Source: Savitreella phatthalungensis
Lineage: Eukaryota
Reading direction: 5' to 3'
Length of the DNA: 64,000 nt
Assembly (NCBI GenBank): GCA_051599415.1
Contig: AP039703.1
Location: 248,001-312,000 of the forward strand
Both the position numbers and the translations under genes were made by a program. This document shows, one piece after another, positions 225 to 51,992 of this stretch (the first letter of the stretch is position 1; each line of letters begins with the position of its first letter). Below the pieces are notes generated by a model. That model was not told the origin of the DNA. It worked only from the letters and a program-made list of their open reading frames with translations, and did not search any database.

Positions 225-664
225 ATGGGCGGCGGACACCAGGGCGGTTACAGTAAGTCCTATTCCTTCCGCGGCGCTAAGTCTTCTTCTGCCGACCGAG
301 GTCTTTATTTATGAAGTGGACGTAGTTACTGACAGATTCTCCTTCAGTGGGTTGGTGGGGCTCCTTCCAGGGCGCTCGCCAGAAGGGCATCACGACGTAC
401 TCTCTGTCGTCGTTCCAGCAGCGTGCGCTCGCTGGAGCTGCACACAACGCCGTCTTCAACACTTTCAGACGCGTCAAGAACCAGTTCCTCTACTTCGTTC
501 CACCATTCATCGGCGCCTACTACATCTACACCTGGGCGAACGCAAAGTACGATCACCAATCCCCCTTTTTGACCAGAAGCAAGCGGCAGTACTGACATGA
601 ACTTTTCAACAGGAATGAGTACTATAACTCAAAGGCTGGACACGCAGAACTTGCCGAACACTAG
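225..664 (+). CDS. QCR8: Cytochrome bc1 complex subunit 8 (Qcr8/UQCRQ), 3 exons: 225-252, 348-546, 613-664; 92 aa
   Basis: Spliced product [39 protein letters not shown]...FNTFRRVKNQFLYFVPPF...WANAKNEYYNSKAGH. Introns 253-347 (GTAAGT..ACTGAC..CAG) and 547-612 (GTACGA..ACTGAC..CAG) give a 279-nt open frame. Confidence 0.95.
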
Positions 665-789: not shown

Positions 790-1995
790 TTACAATACGC
801 CAAAACCCTTGGGATTGAAGGATCAGGTCAGCTTCTTGCTCTGCGCGACTGCGAAAATGCTCGGTTGAACTTACCCCGAGACCTGCGCCGCCAAAGCCGC
901 CGAGACCGCCGATGCCAGTATTGATGCAGTTGAGGCAGAGTGCCCCGATACAGGTTTGGCAAGATTGGACTCCAAGACCTCCCTATGTTTCGTGAAGCAG
1001 TTGTGTCAGTTCCTGATGTTCGAGGAGAGGCAGGCTGTTTTGTTTCCTTACAAATCCTGCACCGACGAGCGATCCACCTAACCCGAACCCGCCTCGAATG
1101 CCTGGGAAAAATCCACCGAGGCCGAGCCCAAGTCCAATACCTGAACCAAAAATGCCTAGCCCGCCGCCGAAAGGACTGAAACCGAAGCCTGCACCACCGA
1201 TCGGTAGACCTCCTAGCCCCTGTATGTGCCCACCACGTCAGTGATCGATACGAATGCGTGAGCAAGTGTGTGTGTATGGACTTACACCGAGTCCGAAGCC
1301 TAGAGGACCACCCAGACCGAGACCAAGCCCGCCTAGTCCACCAAATCCGCGGAGTCCAAATCCACCAAACCCACCAAATCCCTAGTCACCACGTCAGTCA
1401 CCATGTTCTTTTGGTGAACAGACGACTTACAAACCCGCCGAGACCTGCGGATAGGAGCAACCGTTTCTTGATACCAGTCCTTGACACTACTACTTCTGCG
1501 CTCCCAGATTTACTGGCTGGTGAAGCGTCTGGGGTGATGCAGTTGATGCACGTTGCTCCAAGACATTGTAGGCAGGATTGCCTGCCGATGCCACCTATCC
1601 CACCGCCGACGATGCCCTTGAACCCGGACACACCCCCTCCCTGCCAACGTGTCAGTGTCTGGGGTGTCTAGGTGTGGGGGAGGACGAACGATCGCTGTAG
1701 CCCTGAAGCTGAGATCAGCAGTATCGTTGGCTGCAAAGCGGGCGTTGAGAGTGGTGGTGTCGCATTGTGATGCTTGGTCGAACGACATGCCGCTCAGAAA
1801 GTGGTCAGGCAACGGATTTGCGAACACACGCTGGAAGTCTCGTGTCGTGACAGACTCGACCACAGACATCACTGCCTGGATGTCCTCAAGCCCAGAAACA
1901 TCGCCGGAGGCGGTGGTCGCGTTAGGCTGGGTGCTGGGTACTTGAGCTACGCACACGCAGGCAAGTAGAGAGAGCGTGATGGCAAAGATGAACAT
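790..1995 (-). CDS. Secreted glycine-rich, Cys-motif protein of unknown function; 6 exons (1995-1690, 1640-1431, 1381-1286, 1219-1052, 982-875, 807-790); about 301 aa
   Basis: Signal peptide MFIFAITLSLLACVCVA. Five introns, each with a GTTCGT/GTAAGT/GTAAGG donor, a CTGAC branch and an AG acceptor. Every exon length is a multiple of 3 and the joined frame is open. Two QSCxxCxGAxCxNC motifs and a KKR site. The last acceptor (AAG) is the least certain. Confidence 0.85.
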
Positions 1996-2222: not shown

Positions 2223-2978
2223 CTATTGCAGAACTTTGTAACATATGCCGTCTGGCTCGTCTTGATACGTTTTCAAGTCCAGTCTGCGGTGCTCAAGCGG
2301 TCGATCGATTGGCGACCAACCGTGATGAGAAATTTCTGTGACAATGATTCGGTGCAGTCCCAACGTAGGATCATCTTCGCTGTCAGAGCCGCCGTCGACG
2401 TCCAGGGATTCTGATTTTTTCAGCTTTTTTGAGCTCCGCCGCTGACTTGCTCCAAGGGAAGGAGAATCAGGTGCATCCTCATCTGACCCTATCTCTGACA
2501 ATCGGCGTTTTCTGGATTTCCTCGGCGTTTTGGGGGTGGTCGGCATGGCTTCTTCACCAAGGACAAATACCTTGACTTTAGTTTTGAGGCGCTGAAAACG
2601 CTGTTGAAGGGCTGTTTGCTTGATGTTGGACCCGGTGTGCTTGTGGAGGAGTGCGAAAGCGTCAGGCGGGGGTCTGGGAGCATGGACGAGCATATGAGCC
2701 ATGACGTCCATGAAGAGATCGTGCTCTGCGGTGCCGATGTTCGCAGGCGGCGTGCATTCGGTGGAAGCGTCTTCATTTTCTAGATTCGACCACGCCACCA
2801 TCTTCTTCAGGAGCCGGCGCCAGCGTGCACCCGCAGCGCCAGGATTCAAGTCATTCTTGCCGGCATGCCACTTGATCGCTTCGCTCGGCGTGGTGTCCAT
2901 CACGATAGGCACGAATACGAACCGCATCATTTCGTAGTCTGCAGGTGTGAAATCGATTTTGCGTTGAGATTCCTCCAT
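2223..2978 (-). CDS. Hypothetical nuclear protein with two Myb/SANT-like helical repeats, 251 aa
   Basis: ATG-initiated ORF. Repeats end in AAGARWRRLLKK and ALQQRFQRLKTK; basic NLS-like RKSRKRR; TPK/TPRK sites. N-terminus aligns with the neighbouring 3244-5304 protein. Confidence 0.75.
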   Translation of the reverse strand: MEESQRKIDFTPADYEMMRFVFVPIVMDTTPSEAIKWHAGKNDLNPGAAGARWRRLLKKMVAWSNLENEDASTECTPPANIGTAEHDLFMDVMAHMLVHAPRPPPDAFALLHKHTGSNIKQTALQQRFQRLKTKVKVFVLGEEAMPTTPKTPRKSRKRRLSEIGSDEDAPDSPSLGASQRRSSKKLKKSESLDVDGGSDSEDDPTLGLHRIIVTEISHHGWSPIDRPLEHRRLDLKTYQDEPDGICYKVLQ

Positions 2979-3243
2979 TTGTGCGACGATGAGATAATAT
3001 TATGAACAACGGTACACGTCTTTATCTTCGAGGCGGAGGGCATGTTGATATGCGCAACGGTGCACAACAACGATGCTCACATGACCAGGTCATTTGCTAA
3101 GTTATGTGTCAGGTTAGTACAGAGCGCTCAGGTCACACAAAAGACAGATGCTTGACACGCTCGCCTTGTGTCAGTCATGGACGCCGCATGCTGACTGCTT
3201 GGCCACTCCTGGCTAAGCTTGCGGTCAATTTGCTATGCCTGAT

Positions 3244-5304
3244 TCAAGGGGCAGATCGCAAAGATGACCTGACTTTCTGAAGGGCCTCGCTTGGTAGGCG
3301 TTTCCCAAACGATCCCACTTTTGAGTGGGGCTGCTCGCGTAGCTCATCGATCGCCTGCCACTCTGTATTGATGAAGGCCGTAGCAGCATTTGGAAAGCTC
3401 GGCCAGCAATTTGAGCGACTCTTAGATTTACAGCCAATGCAGCGGTAGACGTCGTTTGGATCGCGGACGACGCGATAGACCCGGACCGTTGGGATTTTGC
3501 AATCTTCACCGTTGTCCTTGCACTCATGGCACCTCAGGTGTTTCGGCAAGACAAAATGGAAAAGCGGTTGGCGGAGCAAGCGATTGCGCCAAGAAGTTGG
3601 TGGCTGGCATGCTCTAGGCCACACGAGATCCTTTAGCCACAACTCGGAATCGGGTTTCTGCACTTCGGATACCACTCGGGAGACCCAATCGACCTGCTCT
3701 TCTCCTTGTAGAACTGTCAGATGAGCAGCATTTGGATCTTGCGTGCTGAGACGATGACGTTGATCGATTGCACCTTGAGGACGGGCAGCCTCGATCCTTT
3801 CAGGTATCGGTAAATGATTCGAGTGCAATGCCGAGCTCGGTGGCTGATGTACTTGGTCAGCGGACACTGAAGATACAGCTGATTCCACGAAACTCTGGCG
3901 AGCGGGTCCTGCGCCGCTCAGAAGTCTCTTGAGGATGCTGGAGGGCAAATTTGTCCCGAGAGGACCTGCTTCTGCGAAAGTGTAGTTTTTGAGCATCCCC
4001 AAGGCCTGATCTTCGAACGCGATGAATTGCTCATCCGCTGGTGAAAAGACACATGTAAGGCCTGAAAGCTTGCAAGTCAAACAGCCACCTATTTTGGTCA
4101 TGATGGACAACTTGCATTTGCGTTCGTTGCACCGGCAAGAGGTGCAACGATGCTCTTCTGGGAGGATGTAATGGAACACGTCGCTGGCTGAGTGAAGGTT
4201 GGAGATCCATCGCCAGTTTCTTGACTGGTCGCGGGTGAATTTCAGATGTTTTAGCCAGTACTTAGAATCTGGCAGTCGTACTGCGGTGTCGACCCGCTGG
4301 ATCCAAGCATCCTTTTGCTCCTCTTTGCCAGCTTGGAGCTCAGTCGCATAGATGTGATCAATATTGAGCACACGGTCCGTAGGATTCTTCTTCTTTCTTT
4401 TCGGTGCACTGTCTTCATCGGCTTCGGCAACGAGCTGATTCTCAGCAGCATCGCGATCTAACTCGCTCTGATCTTGGCGATCTAGCTCGATATCCGGTGC
4501 TGACGCTGAAAGAGGTGTGTCGTCACCAGATTCAGATTGCTCATCGTATGTCACTGCAGTCCTTGGACGCAGTCTTGTCGAGCTTGTAGGCGTCTTAGGC
4601 GCGTCTGGCAAATTCTGCGAAGGCCGAGATCGCTTTCGAGGTCGTCCAGTGACTTCAGCCGAGCTTCTATTCGACCTGCTTTGATCTGTTTGATTCTGAT
4701 CGTCTTGGATGTTGAGTGATGGTGGCGTGTTGTAAAGTTGTGCAACTTCATTTGCTGGCTGTGCATCTAGTAATGAATCGCGAGTCGGGGTAGAATGCAT
4801 GCTAGTCGGTAGACTCAGATCATGTATATCTTCGGGTAGCAAGAGCAAGTCCTGTTTGAAGTTCGACCACCTTTTGCGGGCAACGCCCAACGTGATGCGA
4901 TTCACTTTGCAGTATTGGTCAAAATCACTGTCCTCTGGTGATGATTGCAAAACAGCTGCGTGCAGTATGATCGGCTTGAGCAATTGCATTTGCCCCTCAT
5001 TGAGTGATAGCGTACTTCGATGGAGAGCTCGTCCGTTCATGTTTGTCTCATATTCATTGTACCGGCTGATCCACTCGGCAAGATGCCTGCGCAGTGCTTT
5101 CCAATGCGGCTTGTAATCACGACGATCACATTGGTTCTTTTTGGCGAGCCACTTGAGTGCAGCCTTTGGCTTGTTCCGGAGCAACATCGGTATGACGCCA
5201 TCCTGTATAGTATCAGCACGTGAGGCGAATAACGAGATTTGTGAAAAGGCGCTGCTTACCTGGATGATCTCCGCTTGATCGACAGGATATATTGTATCAA
5301 GCAT
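3244..5304 (-). CDS. Putative transcription regulator: N-terminal Myb-like double domain plus two Zn(II)2Cys6-like clusters; probable in-frame intron 5203-5259 (667 aa spliced)
   Basis: 686-codon ORF. Clusters are C-x2-C-x6-C-x10-C-x2-C-x6-C (4051-4146) and C-x2-C-x6-C-x19-C-x2-C-x7-C (3406-3531). NLS PKRKKK. A 57-nt GTAAGC..GCTGAT..CAG segment lies near the start. Confidence 0.8.
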   Translation of the reverse strand: MLDTIYPVDQAEIIQVSSAFSQISLFASRADTIQDGVIPMLLRNKPKAALKWLAKKNQCDRRDYKPHWKALRRHLAEWISRYNEYETNMNGRALHRSTLSLNEGQMQLLKPIILHAAVLQSSPEDSDFDQYCKVNRITLGVARKRWSNFKQDLLLLPEDIHDLSLPTSMHSTPTRDSLLDAQPANEVAQLYNTPPSLNIQDDQNQTDQSRSNRSSAEVTGRPRKRSRPSQNLPDAPKTPTSSTRLRPRTAVTYDEQSESGDDTPLSASAPDIELDRQDQSELDRDAAENQLVAEADEDSAPKRKKKNPTDRVLNIDHIYATELQAGKEEQKDAWIQRVDTAVRLPDSKYWLKHLKFTRDQSRNWRWISNLHSASDVFHYILPEEHRCTSCRCNERKCKLSIMTKIGGCLTCKLSGLTCVFSPADEQFIAFEDQALGMLKNYTFAEAGPLGTNLPSSILKRLLSGAGPARQSFVESAVSSVSADQVHQPPSSALHSNHLPIPERIEAARPQGAIDQRHRLSTQDPNAAHLTVLQGEEQVDWVSRVVSEVQKPDSELWLKDLVWPRACQPPTSWRNRLLRQPLFHFVLPKHLRCHECKDNGEDCKIPTVRVYRVVRDPNDVYRCIGCKSKSRSNCWPSFPNAATAFINTEWQAIDELREQPHSKVGSFGKRLPSEALQKVRSSLRSAP

Positions 5305-5811
5305 GACCCCTGAGGATCAGCTGAATAGGCTACAATTGAGCACTAAGTGTGGTTGGTCAAGGAGATGGGTAGCTGTTGGTAAAGATGAGGAGGACGTGGA
5401 GGATGGTTGTTGCCAGTCACTGGGGAGATTAGGCGGGCTTATATGTGGCAATGTCCCAGAGTATCACTCAAGACTTGGACTAACTTAATTGAGTCTTTGA
5501 AAGGTGCTTTTCTCTTTCTTCAGTCACTTTTAATGGAGAATTAAATGATTATTGACTAATTTCTAACGTTTCCTGCTTCGAGCTGTTACTTTTTATTGAT
5601 CGTTCCACCTTGTATCAGCCTGGTACGCTTCCAGTTTAACATGATGCACTGTTGAATGCACAGACCGCCTGTCATCTTCTCTTCAGCTGACAGACAGCAA
5701 GCTAATAGTATACCATCAGTGATCAGGCTGAATGCACAAATACCTACCAGTGCACTTCAGCCTTTCCTCTTAGTGATCAGTGGTTCGATGTTTTGATGGG
5801 ATGCTGATGTG

Positions 5812-11841: not shown

Positions 11842-14800
11842 TTAGTACAGTCTGGGTGCGATGTTCATCGCCATGAGTTCTTGGAAAAGCAGTTTTGCAG
11901 CGTAGGGGATGTGGACTTGAGAGATTTTGGTAGTGTTGCGACATGCTCTGCACTCAAAGATGTTCTTCTTGAGCTGTGCGATGGCCTGGAGGCCGCACAG
12001 GTCGCACACATGGAGTCGATATGCATCAGAGGAGTCAAACAATCGTTCCTTCAGGAATCCAGCGACACCGTGAGAGATCATACAGTCACGCTCCATCTCT
12101 CCGAATCGGAGTCCACCGTCACGCGCACGACCCTCGACAGGCTGACGCGTGAGGATTTGCATAGGACCACGAGCACGAGCGTGAATCTTGTCGTCGACAA
12201 GATGCTTCAGACGCTGGTAGTAGGTCGGCCCAAGGAAGACCTGTGCTTTCAGTTTGCGTCCAGTGTGGCCGTTGTACATGACCTCAAATCCACGTGACTG
12301 ATAACCTGCATCTCTCAGATTCTGCGAGACCGCCTCGACGGTGACGTCTGTGAATGGCGTCGCATCGCCCTCGAATCCGGCGAGAGAACCCACCTTGGAT
12401 AGCTGACACTCGACCAAGTGGGCCACCGTCATACGCGACGGGATGGCGTGCGGGTTGATGATTAGGTCAGGCACGATACCTTCTGCTGTGAACGGCATGT
12501 CCTCATTTCTGTAGGTGACACCAATAGTACCCTTTTGACCGTGCCGGGATGCGAACTTGTCTCCGATCTGAGGGATCTTCGTTGTCCTGATTCTCACTTT
12601 CACGAACTTGCGACCATCGGCGTTCGTGGTCAACATGACTTGGTCAACGATGCCACTCTCTGTAGATCTCAGCGGAGTAGATGCATCGGACTTTGTGTGA
12701 TCGACCGTTCTGGCGCCAAGCTCTGCGTTGCTGTCGCCCTTGGGAATGGGCGCAGTCTTGCCGATGATGACATCCTCACCCGAGACACGCACACCAGGCG
12801 CAATCAGACCGTCCTCGTCCAGTTTGTCGTACGTGCCCCGCTTCATCCTGAGCACCGTCATTCGTGTCGGCTTCTCAAACTGTGAGATAGCGCCCATTGA
12901 GAGCTTCTCCTCGGCATCCTGGTACACACGGTAGAACATCGACCGGAAGAGACCTCGATCGATAGAACTCTGGTTCATGATGACGGAATCTTCCTGATTG
13001 TAGCCGGAGTAACAAAGAATGGCGACGATCGCATTCTGGCCGGCCGGCAGCTCTCTGAACTTGAGGTACTCCATCGATCTCGTGGTGGCCAGGGGCTTTT
13101 GCGGGTAGTACAGAATGTTGGCCATTGTGTCCATGCGGACTTGATAATTGGTGAGGAAGACTCCCATTGCTTGCTTGCCCATGGCCGATTGGTAGGTGTT
13201 ACGGGGGGACTGATTGTGGTCTGGGAAAGGAATGATGGACGCACAAACACCCAGGATCATGGACGGGTGGATCTCGCAATGTGTCCAGAGATGTTGCGAT
13301 TTGTTGACGGCCGGTCGAAGACGACGAGCAGCCTGTTGAGCAGCGGACAAGTCCTCATCGTTCTCGGGTTCGTATCCGCTGATCATATTTCGGGTGGCCT
13401 CGAGATCGTCCGGCGTCATGGCAATCATGACCGTCTCTTCCTCTTCCGCGTCGAGGTATTCTGCAATGCCGCTCGTCAGCACGTTTGACCAGGTGAACTT
13501 GTCCTCCGGAGGTAGATCCGGCTGGTCGCGTGTAAGGGCGAGTCTGTTGACCACATCCTTTGTGAGAACGAGCACACCTGGCTCCGCTTGACCCGTCTCA
13601 TCTGCTGCTGCGCTATCTTCGTCATGGACAATAAACAATGGCCGACAGACACGGCCAGCGTCAGTGAGAAGCCGAAGCTCGCGCTCACGGATATCGCGAA
13701 CGATGGAAACTTCGACGGAGATGTCACCCCGACGACGCAATGAGCGTAGCGTCCTGACAAGTTGTGCAGGGTCGCGATGCACGCCGAGCCAGACACCGTT
13801 GACAAAGACTTTTGTCGCATTCGGAGAAGTTGAAGGGCTGTAGTCTTCCAGCGATTCCATACCCCACTCCTCGAGGAACTCGATGATGGGTGCGCTCGCC
13901 GATCCGACAGATACATACGACATGAGGGAAAGGTTCTTGACTAGACCGCAAGCTTGTCCTTCCGGCGTCTCAGCCGGACAAACAAGTCCCCAATGAGTGT
14001 TGTGCAATTGACGCGGCTTTGCAATCTTGCCGTCTCGTCCGATCGGCGTGTTGGTGCGACGCAAGTGCGATAGGGTTGAAGCATAGGTGTAGCGATTGAG
14101 TACCTGTGAGACACCAACACGTGCCTGCATCTGCTTCTTCTGGTCGCCCCATGTGCCTGTTGCGAGAGAGTATTTGAGACCGGAGGTGATGGTGGTGGAC
14201 TTCACGGCGAGCGCCAAGTTGAACTCTTTCTGAGTCTCATCGCACTTCTTCATGTATGCATAAACGTCCTTTGTGAGACGCTTGAAGAGCATGCGGAAGA
14301 GACCAGCAAGGAGCGGACCAGCCAGGTCAATACGCTTCTTACCGAAGTGGTCACGATCATCTGGATCGCGACGTTCGAGAGCACACATGAGGAGGCGATT
14401 GACCATGTAGCCGAGGAAGAATGCTTTCCGGGACTCAAAACCCTCGTCCGTGGTAATGTGCGGCAGCATTTCTTTCTGAAGGATGTCCTGCGCGTAGCGC
14501 AAGCGCTTCTCCTTCGTGACACCTGTCGCTGAACCACGCTTGCCAATGAAGTCAAGAGCGACCTCGCGGTCCTGGATGACGAAAGCATCCTCGATACAAG
14601 GTTTAAGCATCTCGAGCATTTGCCTGTCACGAGGATCGTAACAAATATGCTCGATGATCTCACGATCTGGGACGACGCCGAGCGCTCGGAAAACGACGAC
14701 GATGGGGATGTCGGTCTTGATGTATGGGAGGGTTGCACGGATCAGTTGGCCAGACTGACCCACACGGGGTGCTGTGAGCTTGATCTGCATAGACGAGATG

Positions 14801-15483
14801 AGCTTGCTGCCTCGCTCGACAGCTGACCGAATCTCTGCGACGTATGATACAGGTGACGGAGGTGCTTTGCGGAAAACCTGGACCATGTTTGCGGCGGACC
14901 GCTCCTGCGCAATGATGACTTTCTCGGAACCATTGATGACGAAGTAGCCTCCAGAATCGAATGGACACTCTTTTAAGTCATACTGCTCCTGATCAGATAG
15001 CTCGTGCAGGACACAGAATGAGGAGCGCAGCATGATAGGAACGCGACCAATGAAGACCTTCTGCGGTTCGTCGTCCTCTTCCTCCAGCCTGAATTCTGCA
15101 CCGTCCTCGTCCTGGACCCAGACCTTCTTGCGCATGTCGACGTAGAGGGGTGATGAGTATGTGAGCGAGCGGAGACGTGCTTCCTGAGGATGCATCGGCT
15201 GTGTGCTACCGTCTGCCTCTGTCATTGTGGGTTTTGAAAGGTAGATCTGGCCAAAGCTGATTTCGTAACGCTTTGCGACATCTGTCTCCTTACCTGAGTG
15301 CTGTTTGTGTGACTCTAGGGTGAGGACAGAGTCTTCGTCGACAATCTCCTGCATCGTGTTCTGGACAAACTCATCGAAGGAGCTTAGCTGCTGAGCGACG
15401 AGGCCCTTTTCGTCAAAGTATGATGCGATGACGGTCCAGTAGTCCTCATTTGTGAGGACCTGGTCATCGTACTCTTCATCCAT
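11842..15483 (-). CDS. RPB2: RNA polymerase II second-largest subunit, intronless, 1213 aa
   Basis: [54 protein letters not shown]-terminal zinc site [20 protein letters not shown]. Confidence 0.99.
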
Positions 15484-15896
15484 AATGTGAAGACTAAAGA
15501 GATGCTAGGGTGAAATGCTGACGGAAGAGAGAAAAGATGATGTACAGTGGTGTGAGAAGGAGAAGAGGGACGGTGAGAGGGTGGTTTCGGGTGATCCCAC
15601 GTCAGGAAAGTGCCCTGCTCTACTTATAGGCTTTGTCCGTAGTCGCGGATGGGAGAATCGATCAGCAGCAAGAATCTATAAGCCTGGTTGAAGTGACGCA
15701 GAAGGGAGGTGGATTGAATGTCGCGCGATCGGTGGAAGGGGTGGAAGAGTTGACTTTGCGTATCTAACAAATTTTGGATGATCTAGGCGTGGTGAATTTG
15801 ACCTCTGACCGGCCAGTGAAGGAGGTAGAGAAGCACGAAGGAGGATTGAGTGAAGTTGCGCGTCTTTTGAGACCAGCCAAGAGCCGGTCGGCAGGA

Positions 15897-17417: not shown

Positions 17418-18778
17418 CTAGCGGAGACAGGCACACACGCGGCTGATGTACCTCTGTGAATCGACCGACATGATCCTTGAGTCGACCTCGTGTATTGGTG
17501 GATCGAGCGGGTTGATCTGTTTTGCATATGCTCTGAGAGCGCGTACTGCACCCACGCCGACATTCTCTCCTGAGGGATCGTCTGGGTATAGTTGCTGGTA
17601 GGCTGCTAGGAGTCTTGCCTTTGCTACACACGCTCTCTGAAGCGCTTGATCTGTGTGGGCGGCTGTGACGGCGTGAGTCCGTGCACGCATACACTCGCAC
17701 ACAGCATCCCAATCACACCGCCCGACAATCTCAGTGTCCGGCAGACTCCGGGTCAAGCACAATCGAACCAAGATTGCCTTGCTCGTCCCCACAACATCCT
17801 TTGTCTCGAGCCCCTAATCCACCTGTTAGCCAACTGAATCCCTCGGCATGGGGGAGAGATCGGGGAAGTTCTTACGCTGAGCATGAGATCGAGTGCGTTT
17901 GGCTCGTACAGCATGAGTTGGTCGGCTAGGAGATCTGTGAGGGTGGTATGTGGTATGATGTTCGGTAGTTTGTGGTTGGTTAGGGTTAGAAGTAGCTTTG
18001 CTAGCCGTGCTCTGAGCTGGACGATCTCGAATGTGAGGGACGACACGAGATCGACCTTCTGCCAGGTGAAGATGCCACGGAGCGCGCGCTTCAACTCGCC
18101 CGCCACACTCCCTGACACCATTACCCCAATCAGTGTCTTCGACAGATCCTTAGCCCTCGCAACCGTCTCCTCCCAATCGAGCTCCAGCGTCGTCATCACC
18201 AACCCGGCAATCGTCAGCCAACCTCGCAGCGCCTTTGGAGATTCCGCCGGCGTGACATTCAGCACAGTCTCCAAAAACGGTAAGGCCGACCCGAAACCGA
18301 GAAACACGGTCGGTGCGAAGAGCGCGTCTGGAGAAGTGTCTGTGGGTGCGATGTCTGGGAGTGCGATGTCGGAGGTGAGGTTTGGGGTGATACGACGACG
18401 CTTGAATCGCCTGGAGGTCGCGTCGCCATCGGCGGGATACTTGTCGACTGCGATGGCATGGCGGAACGCAGCTGCGCCGTGCTGCTTGATCGACCGATTG
18501 AGGACGCGTGTGCAGGCTAGCGAGAGTGTGGGATCGCTCGAGAGCGTCCTGTGCACGAGGAGAGAGCAGCACGCGATCAGGTAGTGGTCTGGGATGGCGA
18601 AGCTTGCCTGTAGTTGCAGTAGGAGGTCTGCATAGTCTGAGTCTGGTGTGGAGGTGTCAGCCTGGGTGGTTTCCCACGCAAATCAGATGCTGCAGTTTCG
18701 ACACTTACAGAGCTCTTCTTCCAGCACGCTGTCTAGCAGCTGGCAGAGCGAGTCTGGCAACAGCTGAAGCGTGTACAT
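17418..18778 (-). CDS. Three-exon helical protein (18778-18709, 18642-17876, 17813-17418; 410 aa), possibly Smc5/6 loader subunit Nse5-like
   Basis: Introns 18643-18708 (GTAAGT..GCTGAC..CAG) and 17814-17875 (GTAAGA..GCTAAC..TAG) join three ORF-track fragments in frame. LEEELYSDYADLLLQL and WLTIAGLVMTTLELDW recall fission-yeast/Pezizomycotina Nse5. The gene model is solid; the identity is tentative. Confidence 0.6.
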
Positions 18779-20132: not shown

Positions 20133-21290
20133 TTACGCCTCGATCCTGACTCGTGGTATTGAGCGAGAGGATTTGGATCTGCGGGGCATCAAGTTCCAGC
20201 GCGCCGACTTGACAGTTCCTGTGCTGCCACGGCGTGCCCGCGAGGGGTCGTCCTCGGGATAGGTTGTGTCGATGGTGATGATGGATGGCTCGTTCGGGCG
20301 CGGTAGATCTTCTATGAACTTGCTAGGTCGACCTACCTCTTCTGCCCATGGAGACTCAACTACCACGCCATCGTCGAATGCGTGTGAGTCTCCACTACCA
20401 TTCTGACCTTCAGCCTCAGTCTCGTGCTCCGCACGTTGCGACGAAGCTGGAGACTTGACTCTTTGGAGTGCCTGCATCTCTCGATGCGTCGGTGTTCTTA
20501 TGGTCAGTGACGGCGGCGGCGACTTCTTTCGTCCTGACGTGGGCGACAGAGCATGTGCATCTGCGGTCGTCAAGTACGGATTGTCCTTTGTCATCTGCTG
20601 ATGCTGGTGGTTTTCCTTAGCGAGAGCGGTGTCAACCTCTGCCTCGGACGTGGGCCGAACACCAGCTTTACTACCAAGGCCGAACTTGGGCAGCAAGGAC
20701 GAGAGACGGTGACCTTTCTTGGCGTGCTCGAGATCGTTGCCGAACCAGACTTGGTGCGCTGGGGAGGCTAGGGCGTAGCCGTACTGCTGTTGCTGGTTTG
20801 GGTGTGCTTGGAATTGTTCGAGGATGGGGCTTTGGGTTGAGGATTTGACGTCACGCATTGCGAGGTCGAGGTCGCTGCCTTTGGGCCAGGATGCTTGTCG
20901 TTGCGCTTGCGACGACCCCACCCCGTCTCCGACGGCGAAGAGCTTGTCGTGTGCGGCGTCGTTGTAGTGGTGGTGCGAGAGCGTGATATGTGCAGCTTGG
21001 AGGAACGCTAGCGGGTCGTACCCTGCTTGCCCCTCATGGTGCCGATGCCATCGCACACGCTGGTGCCACAACATCGCCTCCACCGCCCAGACCCAATCCC
21101 GTGACCCATCCTCCACACCACCACCGCCCCGAACACGCATCCCAGACATCGTCTCTAGCCACCACCGTCCATCACCAACCGTCCTCCTCAATCGCACCAC
21201 CCGAGCATCCTCCTTGGCTGCACGTACTCGCATGATGGAAGGCGTCGACGCTCGAACTACTGCAAACTCGTCACGGAGTGTGCTCCGCAT
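20133..21290 (-). CDS. Hypothetical protein, 385 aa, largely disordered C-terminal half
   Basis: Long ATG-initiated ORF filling the space between two identified genes; no family recognised. Confidence 0.65.
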   Translation of the reverse strand: MRSTLRDEFAVVRASTPSIMRVRAAKEDARVVRLRRTVGDGRWWLETMSGMRVRGGGGVEDGSRDWVWAVEAMLWHQRVRWHRHHEGQAGYDPLAFLQAAHITLSHHHYNDAAHDKLFAVGDGVGSSQAQRQASWPKGSDLDLAMRDVKSSTQSPILEQFQAHPNQQQQYGYALASPAHQVWFGNDLEHAKKGHRLSSLLPKFGLGSKAGVRPTSEAEVDTALAKENHQHQQMTKDNPYLTTADAHALSPTSGRKKSPPPSLTIRTPTHREMQALQRVKSPASSQRAEHETEAEGQNGSGDSHAFDDGVVVESPWAEEVGRPSKFIEDLPRPNEPSIITIDTTYPEDDPSRARRGSTGTVKSARWNLMPRRSKSSRSIPRVRIEA

Positions 21291-21578
21291 TCTGGATGGT
21301 CTCCTCGTTCCGTAGTCGCCCTAACCCATACTCTTATATGTAACCCTCTGCACATCTCACGCAGATCGAGTTTCACTTGTGGGGCGTTGGGTTTGTTTGC
21401 CGATTTGGCGTTTCCGTTGACACCGTCTGTGTATGTGTGTGTACATGCTTGTCTCGAATTCTGTCATTGCCACTCACCCGCCCATCGATAATCAATCAAT
21501 CCATACATACCCCTAACCCCCCGCAATCTCCATGTAACTTTCAACATGACCTAATTTCACACACCCTCACAACCCCGT

Positions 21579-37071: not shown

Positions 37072-37849
37072 TTTCGGTAAGACGGAAAGCCAAGCTCCAA
37101 CCCAAATAGCTCTATCTGGTGCTAAGTACGTGTACGTGCTAAATGGAAAAATCACCGCGGCCCAGTACGTGTCAGCAGACCCGCCTGTCGTAACCACGGC
37201 GATCCATCTGACCCACAAAAAGACTCAGACGTCTCTCGTGCCATCAACATCATCTGTCTCGTACGACAGGCTCGAGAACCATATCTTGGAACTACTCCGC
37301 TATCTGACAACTAGGCGTAAAGTGTTCCATCTTGGGCACAGACGACAGTGTGCTACGAGGAAATAAGAGCGCGTCGAATACTCATAAAGAGGCGCAGCAC
37401 CAAAAAATACCCCGATCGCTTGCCTATTCCGCCTGCCTGTCTTTGACCGAGGGTGAACCACAACTCTCGTGTGCCAAGACCCGCTAGCAACCGCGACCTT
37501 GAAACTCAGGTCTTGAGTCTTTGTCTCTCACAAATCGACCTGCCCACCTCAACACACACCTAGGCACATACATATACACACGCGCAGCCCTGTAACAAGA
37601 GGTGCATCCGTGTCGGTGTGTTTCAGCTCGTGCGTGTGACCTGAAGGGCTGCACGGTCATTGAGCAACACTTAATCTACTTGAGACAGACACGTGGGCTT
37701 ACCCGCTTGATCTAGCCAGCACGCCAGGGCAGGACAACCTGGAGATTTCGCCCGGCCATTTTTATACTCAGGACATTCTGGACCTCAGTTCTGTGAGTCA
37801 GTAGAAGCTAGCCACGACGGCATCGACCACGAGAGAGACCACGATCGAC

Positions 37850-38857
37850 ATGGTGGCAATGCTACATCCCGCAGACGCTCCCGTACGACGCTTGGACGCC
37901 CGGGACGGTGTCTCCGGCGGATTCAGTATACCAACAGGAGCTGGACGTCCCTCACAACATCACTCACACCCGTTGAAAGACGACGGTGAACGGAGGCCGT
38001 CGATGCACGAACGCGAACTGAGCGCGAGCAGTTGCTCTTCTGCAGCCAGCTCACTATCCTCATCCCCCACCACCCCACACGAATCCCACTTCACAACACA
38101 AGCACCTCCCCTCTCACCCAATACAAAGGCCGTACAGACAGACGATATTGACGACTCGGACGACTCGCGGCCGAGATCGAGCTCAGTGCTTTCGATCGAC
38201 TCAAACGGAGGCGGTTGTGAGATTGCAGAAGAGAACACAGAACGACGTCGGTCATCTACGGGTGCTCCAGCCAGGGTCTGGTCATCATGGAAGGAGGAAT
38301 TGCTCGATCGATGTGTTCGCTACTATGCCCGTGACAGGGCAATCCTTCCAGAATCTTCAACAGAGCGTGGTCTTGTCGAAGACGTCTGCGCTGCCCTCGC
38401 CAGAGTCAATAGCTCGGCAAAGACAGAGCTGCTCAAGCGGCAAGCCCTTGCAACCCATTTCGGCTACACCAGAACCCCAGGCTCCCCAATCCTCTTGGCA
38501 AGTCCGTCAGGATCACTCAGACGGCGTTCATCTGCGCAAACGACAGCTGACGGTAGCGTCAGCGGCGGTGGTGATCGCAGATCGTCAGATTGTCCTTCGG
38601 TCGCGCTGGCAGGCGAGGACGATCCGCTAGGCGTTGCTGCCGAGATTGCCCAGCGGGAATTCGAAACCTGCTTTCGCCGACGTCTCCAAGCTCAAAAGGT
38701 CTCTGCAAACGCGACCTCCTCAGACCACCCACTTCTCCTCCCGCCCGCGTACGACCCCACCCCCAAAGACGACCCAGCACAAATCCTGGCGGCCAAGGAG
38801 TGGGATCTCCTAGTGGCCAAACTAGTCCACGACGTCTACGTCAAGCGTCTCCGATAG
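37850..38857 (+). CDS. Hypothetical Ser-rich protein, 335 aa
   Basis: Long ATG-initiated ORF with RRxS phospho-like sites and short helical blocks (WKEELLDRCVRYY; KEWDLLVAKLVHDVYV). No family recognised. Confidence 0.7.
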   Translation: MVAMLHPADAPVRRLDARDGVSGGFSIPTGAGRPSQHHSHPLKDDGERRPSMHERELSASSCSSAASSLSSSPTTPHESHFTTQAPPLSPNTKAVQTDDIDDSDDSRPRSSSVLSIDSNGGGCEIAEENTERRRSSTGAPARVWSSWKEELLDRCVRYYARDRAILPESSTERGLVEDVCAALARVNSSAKTELLKRQALATHFGYTRTPGSPILLASPSGSLRRRSSAQTTADGSVSGGGDRRSSDCPSVALAGEDDPLGVAAEIAQREFETCFRRRLQAQKVSANATSSDHPLLLPPAYDPTPKDDPAQILAAKEWDLLVAKLVHDVYVKRLR

Positions 38858-47528: not shown

Positions 47529-47729
47529 CCATCGACCTGTCCCAGTCTCGACCGAATTCACCTCCGAGCGACGATTCCGAGTCTTCTGCGCATGTGGCTA
47601 TCCGATGTCGCATCACGCGATTTGCATGCGTCACATGCCCTTTACACCTTTCTTGCATGCCTTGCCTATTCCGAACCCGCATAAATACATGACTGGAAGC
47701 CCGTTCCCACCCAGACCCCCGTGTGTGTC

Positions 47730-49526
47730 ATGGAGACCTTTTTGCTATTGTTCACAATCTTGTGCTGCCAACCAGCCGCCGGGTTTGTTCTTTCGAGCGG
47801 CGATCGCCAGCGGGCTATCGATTCGTCAAGTCGGCCAACGCTGAGCCCTTCGGCGTCCAACGACGTGTCCAACCGACCCTCACCGACCCCGTATATATCC
47901 CTGCGGACAGGCGCCTCAACGCCTGTACAACCGAGCCTGTCAGCTTCTGCCGCATCATCTACACCACTGTCGGATCCTCGTCCGCATTCAAAAGCATCCG
48001 CGTCTCCAACTCCGTTCACAAGTAGTTCCATCTCATCTTCAGCCACACCCAGAGGCGACACAGCATCGGCCGCCGCAACCTCCTCTGTACCTTCAGGTGG
48101 GGCTTCAGACGCTCGCTGGATTGTCTTCTCGGGTGGCAAGGACAGTTTGAATTCATCACTTCATCCAGCGATCCTGGCGGAAGTGCCAGGTTACGTTGAC
48201 AAGCACTTTGACAATGTGAATGGGATGCGTCTGAAGGCAGACACGCCACAGGACGTACTCGACAAGTTCTCGGCGCAGCGCGGGGTCAAGCTCACGCGTG
48301 ACACACGGATCAAGTTTCTTGGTGCACAGACTCAGTCAGACGCCTCCTGGGCACTAGCTCGGATCTCGAGGTCGAAGAAGCTGGAGGTGGTCGGGAGCGG
48401 GGATGTCCAGTATGGAGCGCACTACGCGTACGCGTACAACGATGAGGAAGTTGGTAAGGACGTTGATATCTACGTCGTCGATTCCGGCGTCATGTGCAAG
48501 CTTGATGAATTCGGTCAGCGCGCCACGTGTGACAATGCAGCCGTCTTCACGGACGAAAGGGATCCCAGCAAGACGTCGGAAGATCCGATCGGTCATGGCA
48601 CTGGTGTCGCGAGTCTTGCAGCTGGAACGAAGTTAGGGTCATCAAAGGAAGCCAAGATCGTCGCGATCCGAGTGACGGACGCGCAGGGCATGGGATGGAC
48701 GTCTGATGTCGTCCTCGCGCTCAGCTACGTCGCTAGACAGGTCAGGGGCAATCGAGGTCGCAGAGGCGTGCTGCTAGCCGCTCTGGCGGGGACCTCTGAG
48801 TCGTATATTGGCGATGCGTTCCACAAGTCCATCGTCGACAACGGCGTTGTCCTCGTAGCAGCAGCAGGCAACGATGCGAAAGATGCTTGCGAGCAAGGCA
48901 TGCCGCACTCCATGCCGGAAGCGATCGTCGTTGGCGGCACTGACATCGAGGACAAGATGGATTCTCAGAGCAACACGGGTCCGTGTGTGGCCCTATTCGC
49001 ACCGTCGAAGGAAGTGTTGGCACTCAACAAGGACGGCGGAACATCGCTTGTGACTGGTACGTCCTTTAGCGCAGGACTTGTCGCTGGTGTCGTGGCAAAT
49101 TACTTGTCGCGCACAGGTCAAAGCGTCTGGTCAGCTCGCTCGATCAAGCCATGGCTGCAATTCTTCGCTGTGAGCGGCGCAATCCAGGGTGTGCCGGACA
49201 ACACGTACAATTACCTCGTTCAGAGTCAAGTACCCGCGGCGAAGATTAGCCTCACCAATGACGACGAAGGTGATGCTAATGGCGGAGCCAATGACAAAGA
49301 GGACAAAGAGGATGAGCGTGATGGTGGTAGAGACGATGATTCGGAAGACACAGAAGACTTTAAGAGCTCGAGCGACGACAGCGATAGCGATAGCACTGGT
49401 AGTCCGTCACCATCTAGCAGCGTCCATCGTCGACCTGGGAGTGATGGAGGATCAATCGAAGGATCAACTCCGCAAGCAACACCAACGCCAACAACTTCCC
49501 CGGAGAACACGGGAGGAGGCGATTAA
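47730..49526 (+). CDS. Secreted subtilisin-like serine protease (S8, proteinase K-like), 598 aa
   Basis: Signal peptide METFLLLFTILCCQPAAG, Ser/Pro/Thr linker, TQSDASWALARIS. Triad YVVDSG / GHGTGVAS / GTSFS; oxyanion AAAGN; acidic Ser-rich tail. Confidence 0.9.
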   Translation: METFLLLFTILCCQPAAGFVLSSGDRQRAIDSSSRPTLSPSASNDVSNRPSPTPYISLRTGASTPVQPSLSASAASSTPLSDPRPHSKASASPTPFTSSSISSSATPRGDTASAAATSSVPSGGASDARWIVFSGGKDSLNSSLHPAILAEVPGYVDKHFDNVNGMRLKADTPQDVLDKFSAQRGVKLTRDTRIKFLGAQTQSDASWALARISRSKKLEVVGSGDVQYGAHYAYAYNDEEVGKDVDIYVVDSGVMCKLDEFGQRATCDNAAVFTDERDPSKTSEDPIGHGTGVASLAAGTKLGSSKEAKIVAIRVTDAQGMGWTSDVVLALSYVARQVRGNRGRRGVLLAALAGTSESYIGDAFHKSIVDNGVVLVAAAGNDAKDACEQGMPHSMPEAIVVGGTDIEDKMDSQSNTGPCVALFAPSKEVLALNKDGGTSLVTGTSFSAGLVAGVVANYLSRTGQSVWSARSIKPWLQFFAVSGAIQGVPDNTYNYLVQSQVPAAKISLTNDDEGDANGGANDKEDKEDERDGGRDDDSEDTEDFKSSSDDSDSDSTGSPSPSSSVHRRPGSDGGSIEGSTPQATPTPTTSPENTGGGD

Positions 49527-51992
49527 GAGAATTCACTAAGTAGCACAACCCCTGTCTCGTAGATTAAGAGGGTGACAGGACAAATGAATGAGGAGCATCG
49601 CGGCATCGCCACGATTACATTGCCCGTCAGGAGGTCGGTGTTACCACGATAAGGGAATGACCGGGGAAGCGAATTGCTGGGGTGATCAGGATCTGGCTGC
49701 ACGCTAGTTGTATGGGTATCGAACTGTGGAATACATATGGGGCCATGATCATGATTTCGTGGTCACGCAAGGTCGATACATTTTTCGACCTAAGAATGGA
49801 CTATCTGAGGCGCAAGATCAAGTTTGTGGGCCTAAGCGGAGCTACGCGACCCCGTTCTTATTGTTGGGATTGTGATTGTCCCGTGTCATCGAGGACAATC
49901 AACGACACATGGCACGGCGTCACGTCCATCACCTGGAATCTGAAGACTCGTCTCGCTAGCGGCTTCTGGGTCTCCCGCAATCTGCATGCAGGCAAATTAA
50001 TGTCGAATGACTTCATAGCTACGCGTGTATGCTTCCGGACGGCGGACGTAAGCGTGTCTGCGTGTGTACGTGGGATGAACGCGACTTCACCCGACTTACA
50101 GATTAACCGATGTTTCATGTTGAGTGAATATGTGTATTTTCATGGTCTTGCATCCAATTCTATTTTGGTTCTTGTTTCTTTCGACGAGAGGCTAGTTTTC
50201 CACTCTCCGCTCGTTCGTATAGCGGATATCCTTTCATTTGACCCTGTGTGCGCTCACGACTTTACCAACAATGTGTCCAAGGCAATTGCGTGCAGGCTGA
50301 AGAAGGTAGGCTCAGACCGGGTAAAATCATATATCAATGTAGCTCGAGCCAGCGCTTGCTTTAGCCTATTGCAGAAATATCACAAAATTCAGACCATCTA
50401 CTTTGCTCCAGCCAAAATTCTCCTTGACCTGCCAGTGCTGGTACTACATCCACCTCCAGCTCCACATCCGAATCCACTTCCGCGTACTCCAACCCATTCA
50501 ATCATGATCGAATCTCAAGTCTCAACCACAATCGAGGGAACGCATTAACAGGAGCATTGCAGAGACTCATTAGCAGCATGTGTTTAGCGTTCAGAGCAGA
50601 GATTTCTGTGACTCACAGCGTATAGCGGCACTCCCGGTACTCACTCCAGGTATATAGATGGCAACATGTCTCGTTCGACGTTCTCTCAGTGAATCTCTTG
50701 TTCTGACTGGACAAGAATCGTCACATCGACATCAGCGCTATGCACTGAGTGGAACCAGCCTTTCTCATTAGCTCAATCGGAGACTCTCGCCGCTATTAGC
50801 TGAATCAAAATAGCTTTGGGTCTTCGTCGGCGAGCACGACAGCGCTGCGCCTCACACAATGCTGAATGAATCTTAGTCGATGCTGGGGATGTCTGAAACT
50901 CTGATGATCGAGCTTTCATTTCGATTCGAACTTTTGGAATACTCCCTGTGGATGATCGGGGCAAGCGGAGATGGAGAAAACAAGTCCATCGACGCGAGCC
51001 AATTTGACAAGGGCTGATGGGAAAAGTGATGCAAACTGGTGATAATTGTGAAGAAAGGTCTCCATATTTGGAACAGTTCAAGGTCAAATTTTGATAAAGA
51101 CTTTTGACAGTCTCCAGCCTTGCCATGTGGGGAGCATGTGGTTCCGACGTCGTATCCGAGCGGCAATATTATCCAGCTTAACGACTTGGCAGCCTCTGAC
51201 CTGCTGCACATTCATTCTATTCTCCCTATACGGATCGACGGCTAATTCTTTAGACAATAGACTTGTTGGGTCATTTCCAGCTTCTTATTCAAGTGTTTTC
51301 AAGGTCATCCCGCACTGTCGAGATGAGGCTCTGACGACGACTTACCTTATTGATGCTCGTATGGTGATCTCGATGTGACCGTCATGCAGAACCGACTCTT
51401 TCATGCACTCGGTGAAGCGCTGTTTCACTGCAATTTTGCTTCTTCTGCGCAGCAGTCTCCTGAAGAACAAGTCGCGACAACATGCATCCGAAGTTAATTC
51501 GAGTGACAGGCCGAGCGACGAGCCGAGTTGTCTGGTCGTAGTGTTCAAATAAGGTTGACAGACGGCAGATTTCCCACCACCAATTTCGGCAGTAAGAAGG
51601 CCCACCTATGGCACAGATCTCTTGATGGCTTCCAGATTAGCATCCCAATATCTCGGATGGAGAAGAAAACTAAAAGGCGCCTAGACCTTATCCCTGATCG
51701 GCTTTCATCAAATAGCAGCACATTGAGCCTAAAGCTGCTGGTGGTCCGTAGCTAATCACTTTTTCTGTACCAATTTAGTGGCCGACTGATTCAAGCGGAG
51801 AAGACCCCTGGGCTGTGCCCAGAACGGCGAAGCGGTCAGTAACATTGTGATGAGGTCGTCGACGTGGGATGCTGCCATCTGCACAGCTCCCACCCGTCCT
51901 TCCTCAGCTACTCGTGGAGTCTGCAGACCCTTCAAGATGTCGAATTGGGATATGCTGCACGTCTCGCGAAGAATCGGGTCGTCGTCCCGTAG

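Follow-up and report, generated by a model that had tools for sequence, protein, structure and literature searches.

A predicted six-exon gene for a probably secreted glycine-rich protein with a duplicated four-cysteine motif in the early-diverging ascomycete Savitreella phatthalungensis

The stretch of Savitreella phatthalungensis DNA analysed here is a 64-kb window (contig AP039703.1, positions 248,001 to 312,000; positions below are counted from its first letter), and it carries a candidate gene on the minus strand at 790–1995. The stop-to-stop list of open reading frames (ORFs) contains only fragments at this locus, namely 1510–2040, 1398–1667, 1238–1381, 983–1237 and 725–982. Read from 1995 to 790, the strand runs from an ATG (1993–1995) to a TAA (790–792), and removal of five introns leaves one frame of 301 codons. 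The first-pass annotation, which was made from the letters and an ORF track, had seen the same fragments and had proposed a six-exon frame of about 301 residues interrupted by five introns. On re-reading of the minus strand, all its coordinates and residues are correct and our translation agrees with it residue for residue. The proposed parts of the gene are listed below in the direction of reading.

1690–1995, minus strand: exon 1, 102 codons, starting at the first ATG of the open frame 1510–2040; residues 1–17 (1945–1995) are hydrophobic and signal-peptide-like and are followed by an 85-residue polar, acidic region
1641–1689, minus strand: intron 1, 49 nt, GTTCGT...CTGAC...CAG, phase 0; its retention would shift the frame
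1431–1640, minus strand: exon 2, 70 codons, comprising a Gly-rich stretch, Cys motif copy 1, a Ser/Ala/Pro linker, IKKR and the start of the tail
1539–1580, minus strand: Cys motif copy 1, Q-S-C-x2-C-x-G-A-x-C-x-N-C
1461–1469, minus strand: KKR, residues 160–162, the sole dibasic site, with Ile at P4; candidate Kex2 cleavage site ahead of the tail
1382–1430, minus strand: intron 2, 49 nt, GTAAGT...CTGAC...TAG, phase 0
1286–1381, minus strand: exon 3, 32 codons, rich in Gly, Phe and Leu
1220–1285, minus strand: intron 3, 66 nt, GTAAGT...CTGAC...CAG, phase 0; in-frame stop if retained
1052–1219, minus strand: exon 4, 56 codons, rich in Gly, Leu, Phe and Ile
983–1051, minus strand: intron 4, 69 nt, GTAAGG...CTGAC...TAG, phase 0; in-frame stop if retained
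875–982, minus strand: exon 5, 36 codons, with Cys motif copy 2 followed by a Gly-rich stretch
926–967, minus strand: Cys motif copy 2, same pattern as copy 1
808–874, minus strand: intron 5, 67 nt, GTAAGT...CTGAC...AAG, phase 0; the unusual acceptor is the first AG past the branch point
790–807, minus strand: exon 6, five codons and the TAA stop (790–792)

The six exon lengths are all divisible by three, so the five introns are all in phase 0, and a Gly codon opens each of exons 2–6. Every intron has the branch-point-like element CTGAC shortly 5' of its acceptor. Retention of intron 1, 2, 3 or 4 would stop the protein at 161, 182, 219 or 282 residues, respectively, while retention of intron 5 would give a 345-residue product with the last five residues replaced by a charged tail. 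Introns 2 (1382–1430) and 3 (1220–1285) both start with GTAAGTC and share an identical 12-nt stretch across the branch point. This likeness hints that an exon–intron unit may have been duplicated as the Gly-rich region grew. Directly 3' of the stop codon, positions 764–789 hold 3.2 copies of an 8-nt unit in tandem, with 94% matches.

Five such introns in so short a stretch exceed chance expectation by a wide margin. We scanned both strands of the window with a strict intron pattern and with a relaxed one matched by all five introns. The strict pattern gives eight matches, three of them inside the gene. The relaxed pattern gives 11 matches in 128 kb of strand, and five of these fall on one strand within the 1.2 kb of the gene, which is about 65 times the chance density. 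In 100 mononucleotide shuffles of the window the relaxed pattern occurs 8.1 times on average and at most 15 times. By our own arithmetic this corresponds to ~0.08 expected matches in 1.2 kb of one strand and to a Poisson probability of ~2e-8 for at least five, computed before frame preservation is required.

The coding signal was scored with a codon log-likelihood table derived from ten long ORFs in the same window. The proposed frame is the best frame in each of exons 1–4, with +25.4, +1.6, +13.5 and +21.1 bits, respectively. Exon 1, whose sequence is not of low complexity, scores −43.0 and −54.6 bits in its other two frames. The gene model is thus well supported by its sequence signals, and we regard a real spliced gene at this locus as quite probable.

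The predicted protein falls into five regions.

Residues 1–17: strongly hydrophobic, grand average of hydropathy (GRAVY) 2.66, ending in C-V-A; signal-peptide-like
Residues 18–102: polar and acidic, 85 residues, net charge −6, with two NxS/T sites and one Cys
Residues 103–136: Gly-rich stretch leading into Cys motif copy 1
Residues 137–162: Ser/Ala/Pro/Val linker ending in I-K-K-R, the only dibasic site
Residues 163–301: tail of 139 residues, with 62 Gly, 25 Leu, 16 Phe and 7 Ile

The signal peptide proposed in the first-pass annotation is supported in silico by the signal-peptide-like, hydrophobic N-terminus, with C-V-A directly before the predicted cut; the call follows the −3/−1 rule. Past this segment no 19-residue window exceeds a hydropathy of 1.32, for which reason a membrane protein is unlikely and was rejected. 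A classical glycosylphosphatidylinositol (GPI) anchor signal appears unlikely from the mean hydropathy of 0.57 over residues 281–299, which is below expectation for such a signal. An FG nucleoporin was likewise rejected on the signal-peptide-like N-terminus and on GLFG, which occurs at 0 of 301 positions. Secretion of the protein is likely. An AlphaFold model of exon 1 has a mean predicted local distance difference test score (pLDDT) of 44.5, falls below 50 over residues 16–102 and is unusable beyond the signal helix. The low pLDDT of this N-terminal region is compatible with disorder and is not proof of it.

The tail is 45% Gly, 18% Leu and 12% Phe. It contains no Asp, Glu, Lys, His, Tyr, Trp or Met and has a net charge of +2; the composition count agrees with the earlier description of a tail that lacks acidic residues and has only two Arg. 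Its repeats are irregular and comprise 13 FG, 15 GLG and four GGxxxGG units. Cys motif copy 2 spans residues 265–279, and 22 further Gly-rich residues follow to the C-terminus. The Cys residues of the protein are at position 78, at 125, 128, 133 and 136, and at 268, 271, 276 and 279, with no CC pairs.

The two Cys motif copies are a feature of this gene alone within the window. A degenerate DNA pattern for the motif matches twice in the window, both times here, and not once in 100 shuffles. Similarly, the only CxxCx4CxxC strings in the six-frame translation of the window are these two copies. At the DNA level they form a 46-nt direct repeat with 74% identity. From the Gln to the Ile after the motif, 10 of 15 positions are conserved between the copies, and at eight of those ten, among them all four Cys, the copies use the same codon. 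Two base changes fall in the ten conserved codons, compared with ten in the five variable codons. The likeness extends beyond the motif core to G-G-[I/L]-G ahead of it and C-I at its end. That the Cys frame stays fixed while the positions inside it change fast suggests that a disulfide scaffold may be under selection, though the sample is tiny and the test partly circular. The duplicated module of a Gly-rich stretch and a four-Cys element had been proposed in the first-pass annotation and stands. Its description as two related modules holds for the duplicated motif, whereas the modules themselves differ greatly in size (~34 against 139 residues).

A single-sequence AlphaFold model of exon 2 places strands, as assigned by DSSP, only over the motif, at exon-2 residues 20–27 and 30–37, with the G-A pair at the turn of the hairpin. 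Mean pLDDT in 10-residue blocks is 76 and 64 over the motif and 41–48 elsewhere, and 12 residues reach 70–90. The modelled register would bring the outer two Cys opposite each other across the strands, and likewise the inner two. The disulfide hairpin that had been offered as one option for the motif is therefore matched by a predicted β-hairpin, at moderate model confidence over the motif.

Searches for relatives returned none. In Pfam, exons 1, 2, 4 and 5 match no family at E values up to 0.1, with the sole exception of exon 1, where a viral coat family matches below threshold (E 0.095, 13.1 bits; cut-off 27.5). A word-based protein search with exon 1 yielded 212 candidates among longer proteins and two at similar lengths, none of them scoring. 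An exhaustive HMMER search of 1.84 billion protein representatives with exon 2 yielded two matches and no true relative; both matches (632 and 5143 residues) are tandem-repeat artefacts that lack the Cys motif and were rejected. The sequences of the PDB contain no match to exon 2 at E values up to 10. The literature was also searched for self-assembling, Gly/Phe-rich wall proteins of fungi; judged by title, the papers listed were mostly on plant cell walls or reviews, and none of them described a comparable fungal protein. The earlier remark that the Cys motif is not recognizable from any named family holds across Pfam, the PDB and the 1.84 billion representatives.

A metagenome scan with the degenerate motif pattern found seven loci, which represent four distinct sequences, and none of the seven has Gly-rich flanks. 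About four chance matches had been estimated beforehand by our own arithmetic, and for this reason we take these loci as chance. Three of them (L002, L006 and L007, with the match near 3001–3042) encode furin-like CxxC repeats on contigs of ~39–40% GC. This Cys-repeat protein has in-frame stops, possibly reflecting a ciliate-type genetic code; it was rejected as a relative and is unrelated to the present gene apart from the forced motif match. Two further loci (L001 and L003) belong to an AT-rich CxxCxGxGCxxC protein in a DnaJ-like context and were also rejected, as were L004 and L005, which have stop codons near the match in the translated frame. The searches suggest a gene restricted to a narrow fungal lineage. 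The absence of relatives is weak evidence, because the collections consist mostly of predicted proteins and a six-exon, low-complexity gene may go unpredicted in related fungi.

The dibasic site lies at the border between the charged half of the protein and the uncharged tail. Its sequence, I-K-K-R, matches the extended Kex2 motif, with an aliphatic residue at P4 (here Ile), Lys at P2 and Arg at P1 (PMC8528282). In shuffles of the mature sequence, [KR]R sites occur in 33% and [KR]R sites with an aliphatic P4 in 12%. The only Peptidase_S8 ORF of the window, a subtilase of 613 residues at 47685–49526 on the plus strand (E 6.2e-23), has no P-domain match and is for that reason not an obvious kexin, as far as its sequence indicates.

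The first-pass annotation had described the protein as a probably Kex2-processed precursor and had referred to Kex2-processed repeat proteins (KEPs). According to the KEP study, such proteins have at least three repeats interspaced by KR, RR or KK sites (PMC6339444). The present protein resembles them in combining an internally repeated motif with a dibasic site in a predicted secreted protein, but it has two motif copies and one site (K160-K161-R162). The same source asks that repeats make up at least 15% of the protein; two stretches of ~20–22 conserved residues amount to a borderline ~14% of 301 residues, a figure that is moot because the number of repeats already falls short. The fit of IKKR to the extended motif thus supports the precursor idea, while the single site, of a kind expected in 12–33% of shuffles, and the departure from the KEP definition count against it. 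It is plausible but statistically weak, and we consider Kex2 cleavage rather doubtful.

A looser likeness is to the K2PP effectors, for example SnTox3, which have a disordered pro-domain at the N-terminus and, following it but still within the first half of the chain, a Kex2 motif (KR, RR or LxxR) (PMC8528282). Here a single site of the type [aliphatic]-x-K-R follows an N-terminal part that is probably disordered according to a low-confidence model. However, IKKR ends at residue 162 of 301 (54%), just beyond the first half to which the search for such effectors was confined. The part that would correspond to the pro-domain bears its own copy of the Cys module, and the part that would be mature is of low complexity rather than a folded Cys-rich domain, with no plant-pathogen context known. 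The K2PP effectors therefore resemble this protein only loosely.

The repellent protein Rep1 of Ustilago maydis had been named as a parallel. Rep1 is reported to be a pre-pro-protein that gives rise to 11 peptides, which assemble into amphipathic amyloid fibrils on the aerial hyphae (PMC3133707). On that description the likeness is functional: a fungal precursor, here predicted to be secreted, whose candidate Kex2 site would let a hydrophobic, self-assembling piece be released. The differences are one candidate site instead of many and two unequal modules instead of 11 peptides. No homology to Rep1 surfaced in the protein searches with exons 1 and 2, and no direct alignment to Rep1 was made. 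The parallel is retained as a functional analogy, tempered by the single dibasic site and by the different phylum, since the RPB2 gene places the present host in the Ascomycota.

The nearest documented architectural analogue is the class II of plant glycine-rich proteins, by analogy and not by membership. These active components of the cell wall have a signal peptide followed by GG(X)3GG repeats and, at the C-terminus, a motif rich in Cys (PMC5852109). The protein described here is similar in its signal-peptide-like start, its Gly-rich region and a Cys motif 22 residues from the C-terminus, it would share an association with the wall, and its tail contains four GGxxxGG units. In contrast to the GG(X)3GG arrays of the plant proteins, it has irregular GLG and GFG repeats. 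Further differences are the fungal origin with no sequence similarity found, the extra 85-residue acidic N-terminal region, and a Cys element that is duplicated, with one internal and one near-C-terminal copy and further Gly-rich sequence after it.

The protein is not recognizable as a hydrophobin: it has neither the eight-Cys pattern C-CC-C-C-CC-C nor any CC pair, and exons 1, 2, 4 and 5 have no Pfam hydrophobin match. Two further comparisons are with β-hairpin peptides that carry two disulfides and with Gly-rich domains of the elastomeric or the cohesive FG-repeat kind. With the former the protein shares a short hairpin, here predicted, with four Cys and the four-residue spacing of the inner pair, but the known hairpin peptides have CxC or Cx3C spacing where CxxC is found here. 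Its resemblance to FG-repeat domains lies in the uncharged tail, where FG recurs about once every 11 residues (13 in 139); unlike them, the protein has no GLFG and is predicted to be extracellular, not part of the nuclear pore.

The surroundings of the gene identify the host lineage. RPB2 lies at 11842–15504 on the minus strand (1220 residues), ~10 kb from the gene. Its best named matches are from Pneumocystis (76%) and Schizosaccharomyces (75%), and proteins from metagenomes and run assemblies reach 82–94%. As none is 100% identical, the collection does not contain this genome's own proteins. We computed a maximum-likelihood tree of 22 rows, comprising the RPB2 of the window and 21 sequences picked from the 120 matches listed. 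The window is placed within the Ascomycota with support of 99/98, and there it belongs to a six-row clade of metagenome or run-assembly sequences that has full support. This clade lies, together with Pneumocystis, Neolecta and Schizosaccharomyces, in a grade whose branching order the tree does not resolve. Because RPB2 places the window among early-diverging Ascomycota, the host is, judged by this gene, an early-diverging ascomycete and not a smut fungus.

The window is gene-dense, with long uninterrupted ORFs that include RPB2, C1-tetrahydrofolate (C1-THF) synthase (1053 residues), a TRP-like channel, a trehalase, a forkhead/FHA protein and others. Tail-to-tail with the gene lies that of UcrQ (cytochrome bc1 subunit 8) at 326–595 on the plus strand (Pfam E 9.8e-30), and a strict-consensus intron candidate of 95 nt is located at 253–347 (plus), by the start of the UcrQ ORF. 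On the other side a Myb-like ORF occupies 2223–2999 (minus), with its stop 228 nt upstream of the ATG of the gene. Pfam assigned no family, at the cut-offs applied, to five long ORFs (295–690 residues):

3244–5316, minus strand: ORF without Pfam family
17753–18682, minus strand: ORF without Pfam family
20133–21320, minus strand: ORF without Pfam family
37805–38857, plus strand: ORF without Pfam family
49661–50548, plus strand: ORF without Pfam family

Several observations weigh against a secreted, disulfide-bearing protein from a real spliced gene. The relaxed intron pattern is not enriched across the window as a whole (11 matches against 8.1 in shuffles), and two splice signals are imperfect, the GTTCGT donor of intron 1 and the AAG acceptor of intron 5. 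The codon score of exon 2 is nearly neutral, though the top of six frames, and in exon 5 one reverse-complement frame reaches +15.5 bits against +8.4 for the proposed one. Codon usage departs from that of the reference ORFs: GGG accounts for 15 of the 79 Gly codons (reference ORFs, 36 of 588), TTT for 13 of the 25 Phe codons (reference ORFs, 62 of 265), and the GC content at third codon positions (GC3) of exons 3, 4 and 6 is 0.31–0.43 compared with 0.56–0.70. Other frames are open too, for example one of 185 residues at 828–1385 (minus), which is rich in Arg and Trp and spans introns. The ATG is only 228 nt from the stop at 2223. The mature protein would contain nine Cys, an odd number, and with CxxC spacing the two Cys within one strand point to opposite sides, an unusual arrangement among hairpins with two disulfides. 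Both structure models are of low confidence overall (mean pLDDT 44.5 for exon 1 and 51.7 for exon 2). Finally, conservation offers no evidence of selection on the frame, because the Pfam, PDB and protein searches found no relatives.

A part of these observations would also fit the absence of any functional gene, with chance splice-like signals in Gly-codon-rich DNA or a very young or decaying proto-gene without selected function. This applies to the lack of a homologue in any search, the weak codon bias and low GC3 in exons 3, 4 and 6, the alternative frames open across the same DNA, and intron-like patterns that are at chance level elsewhere in the window. We nevertheless consider it unlikely, since it would leave five frame-preserving consensus introns in 1.2 kb, where ~0.08 are expected, to coincidence. 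Exon 1 is not of low complexity and its score is frame-specific (+25.4 against −43.0 and −54.6), the N-terminus is a textbook hydrophobic segment, and the duplicated motif retains 10 of 15 residues with its base changes concentrated in whole codons. Pro-rich frames open on the plus strand through the same DNA, at 1180–1671 and 1017–1244. Together with the frame at 828–1385 (minus) they are most likely by-products of GGN codon periodicity, and because such frames are open as well, the openness of a frame in Gly-rich DNA is weak evidence. That the plus strand instead encodes a Pro-rich protein from its two ORFs, of 163 and 75 residues, would agree with the score of one reverse-complement frame in exon 5, but in exons 1–4 the proposed frame outscores every reverse-complement frame. 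The three plus-strand matches to the relaxed intron pattern, at 32943, 37165 and 54399, are all outside this region, no signal peptide or start context joins the pieces, and a Pro-rich antisense is the expected mirror image of GGN codons. We regard this reading as extremely improbable.

If the gene is real, its product may still be other than wall material. Cleavage by a kexin after KKR could yield two diffusible bioactive peptides, antimicrobial or effector-like, each composed of a Gly-rich part and a disulfide hairpin. I-K-K-R at the charged/uncharged border fits the extended Kex2 motif, and a β-hairpin is predicted over the Cys motif. The ten base changes in five variable codons, against two in ten conserved ones, show a fixed Cys framework around positions that change fast, as is typical of defence peptides and toxins rich in disulfides, and Gly/Leu-rich antimicrobial peptides exist. 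However, there is a single site, found in 33% of shuffles as [KR]R and in 12% with an aliphatic P4, and fewer than the at least three repeats of the KEP rule. The products of 145 and 139 residues would be far above typical released peptides, the nearly uncharged tail (+2) is unlike most cationic antimicrobial peptides, and the only S8 protease ORF in the window lacks a P-domain match. On balance we judge a peptide precursor improbable. The four-Cys elements could also be metal-binding knuckles, for zinc or another metal, in place of disulfides, and the protein an extracellular metal-binding or metal-crosslinked matrix component. CxxC pairs have the classic zinc-knuckle spacing, a full-text search for C-x2-C-x4-C-x2-C spacing gave, judged by titles and the openings of abstracts, zinc-finger proteins and a badnavirus review among the matches listed, and one metagenome match (L001/L003) is in a DnaJ-like CxxCxGxGCxxC context. 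On the other hand, a genuine signal peptide would take the protein into the oxidizing secretory pathway, a gap of four residues is very short for two knuckles, and no Pfam zinc-finger family matches. Metal binding is therefore very unlikely in our estimate.

The product of the gene is best described as an orphan secreted Gly-rich protein, akin to known secreted Gly-rich proteins with a Cys-rich motif. In the mechanism that we propose, the five short phase-0 introns would be spliced out to give a precursor of 301 residues, and a cleavable N-terminal signal peptide would direct it into the secretory pathway. The N-terminal acidic region would probably be disordered. It would be followed by two modules, each made up of a Gly-rich stretch and a 14-residue four-Cys element, and each element would form a small β-hairpin with Cys facing Cys across the strands, probably in two disulfides. 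The uncharged tail, rich in FG and GLG, would be poorly soluble and cohesive. Extracellular self-association could then produce cell-wall, spore-wall or surface-coat/adhesive material, in which the Cys hairpins may act as folded knots or as intermolecular cross-links. A kexin cut after I-K-K-R would free the tail from the acidic half; this step is optional to the model. The anatomy of the sequence, the clustering of splice signals and the lack of relatives in the searches are shown; we infer expression, secretion, disulfide formation, self-assembly and processing, and derive the role from composition. A structural or self-assembling role is a tentative suggestion, and the account as a whole, a lineage-restricted secreted Gly-rich gene including a structural role in the wall or at the surface, falls a little short of an even chance.

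A bolder version of this account would make the gene the founding member of an undescribed family of extracellular cohesive proteins in an early-diverging lineage of ascomycetes. Such proteins would form a charge-poor Gly/Leu/Phe gel, elastomer or amyloid-like coat with CxxC-x4-CxxC disulfide hairpins whose inter-Cys positions evolve fast, and a kexin might remove an acidic, solubilizing half. The symmetric phase-0 exons, each opening with a Gly codon, would belong to the same design and would allow in-frame exon duplication or skipping. We see only a small chance that all of this is correct.

If expressed as modelled, the protein would add a new sequence type to the few fungal surface-forming proteins (hydrophobins, repellents, cerato-platanins), and its origin would lie in a part of the Ascomycota that has been poorly sampled. 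The protein would represent a compact natural design in which an uncharged Gly/Leu/Phe cohesive domain is combined with 14-residue Cys hairpins, of possible use to work on the fungal cell surface, adhesion and protein materials. It would also illustrate how intron-dense, low-complexity genes can evade both ORF-based and homology-based annotation.

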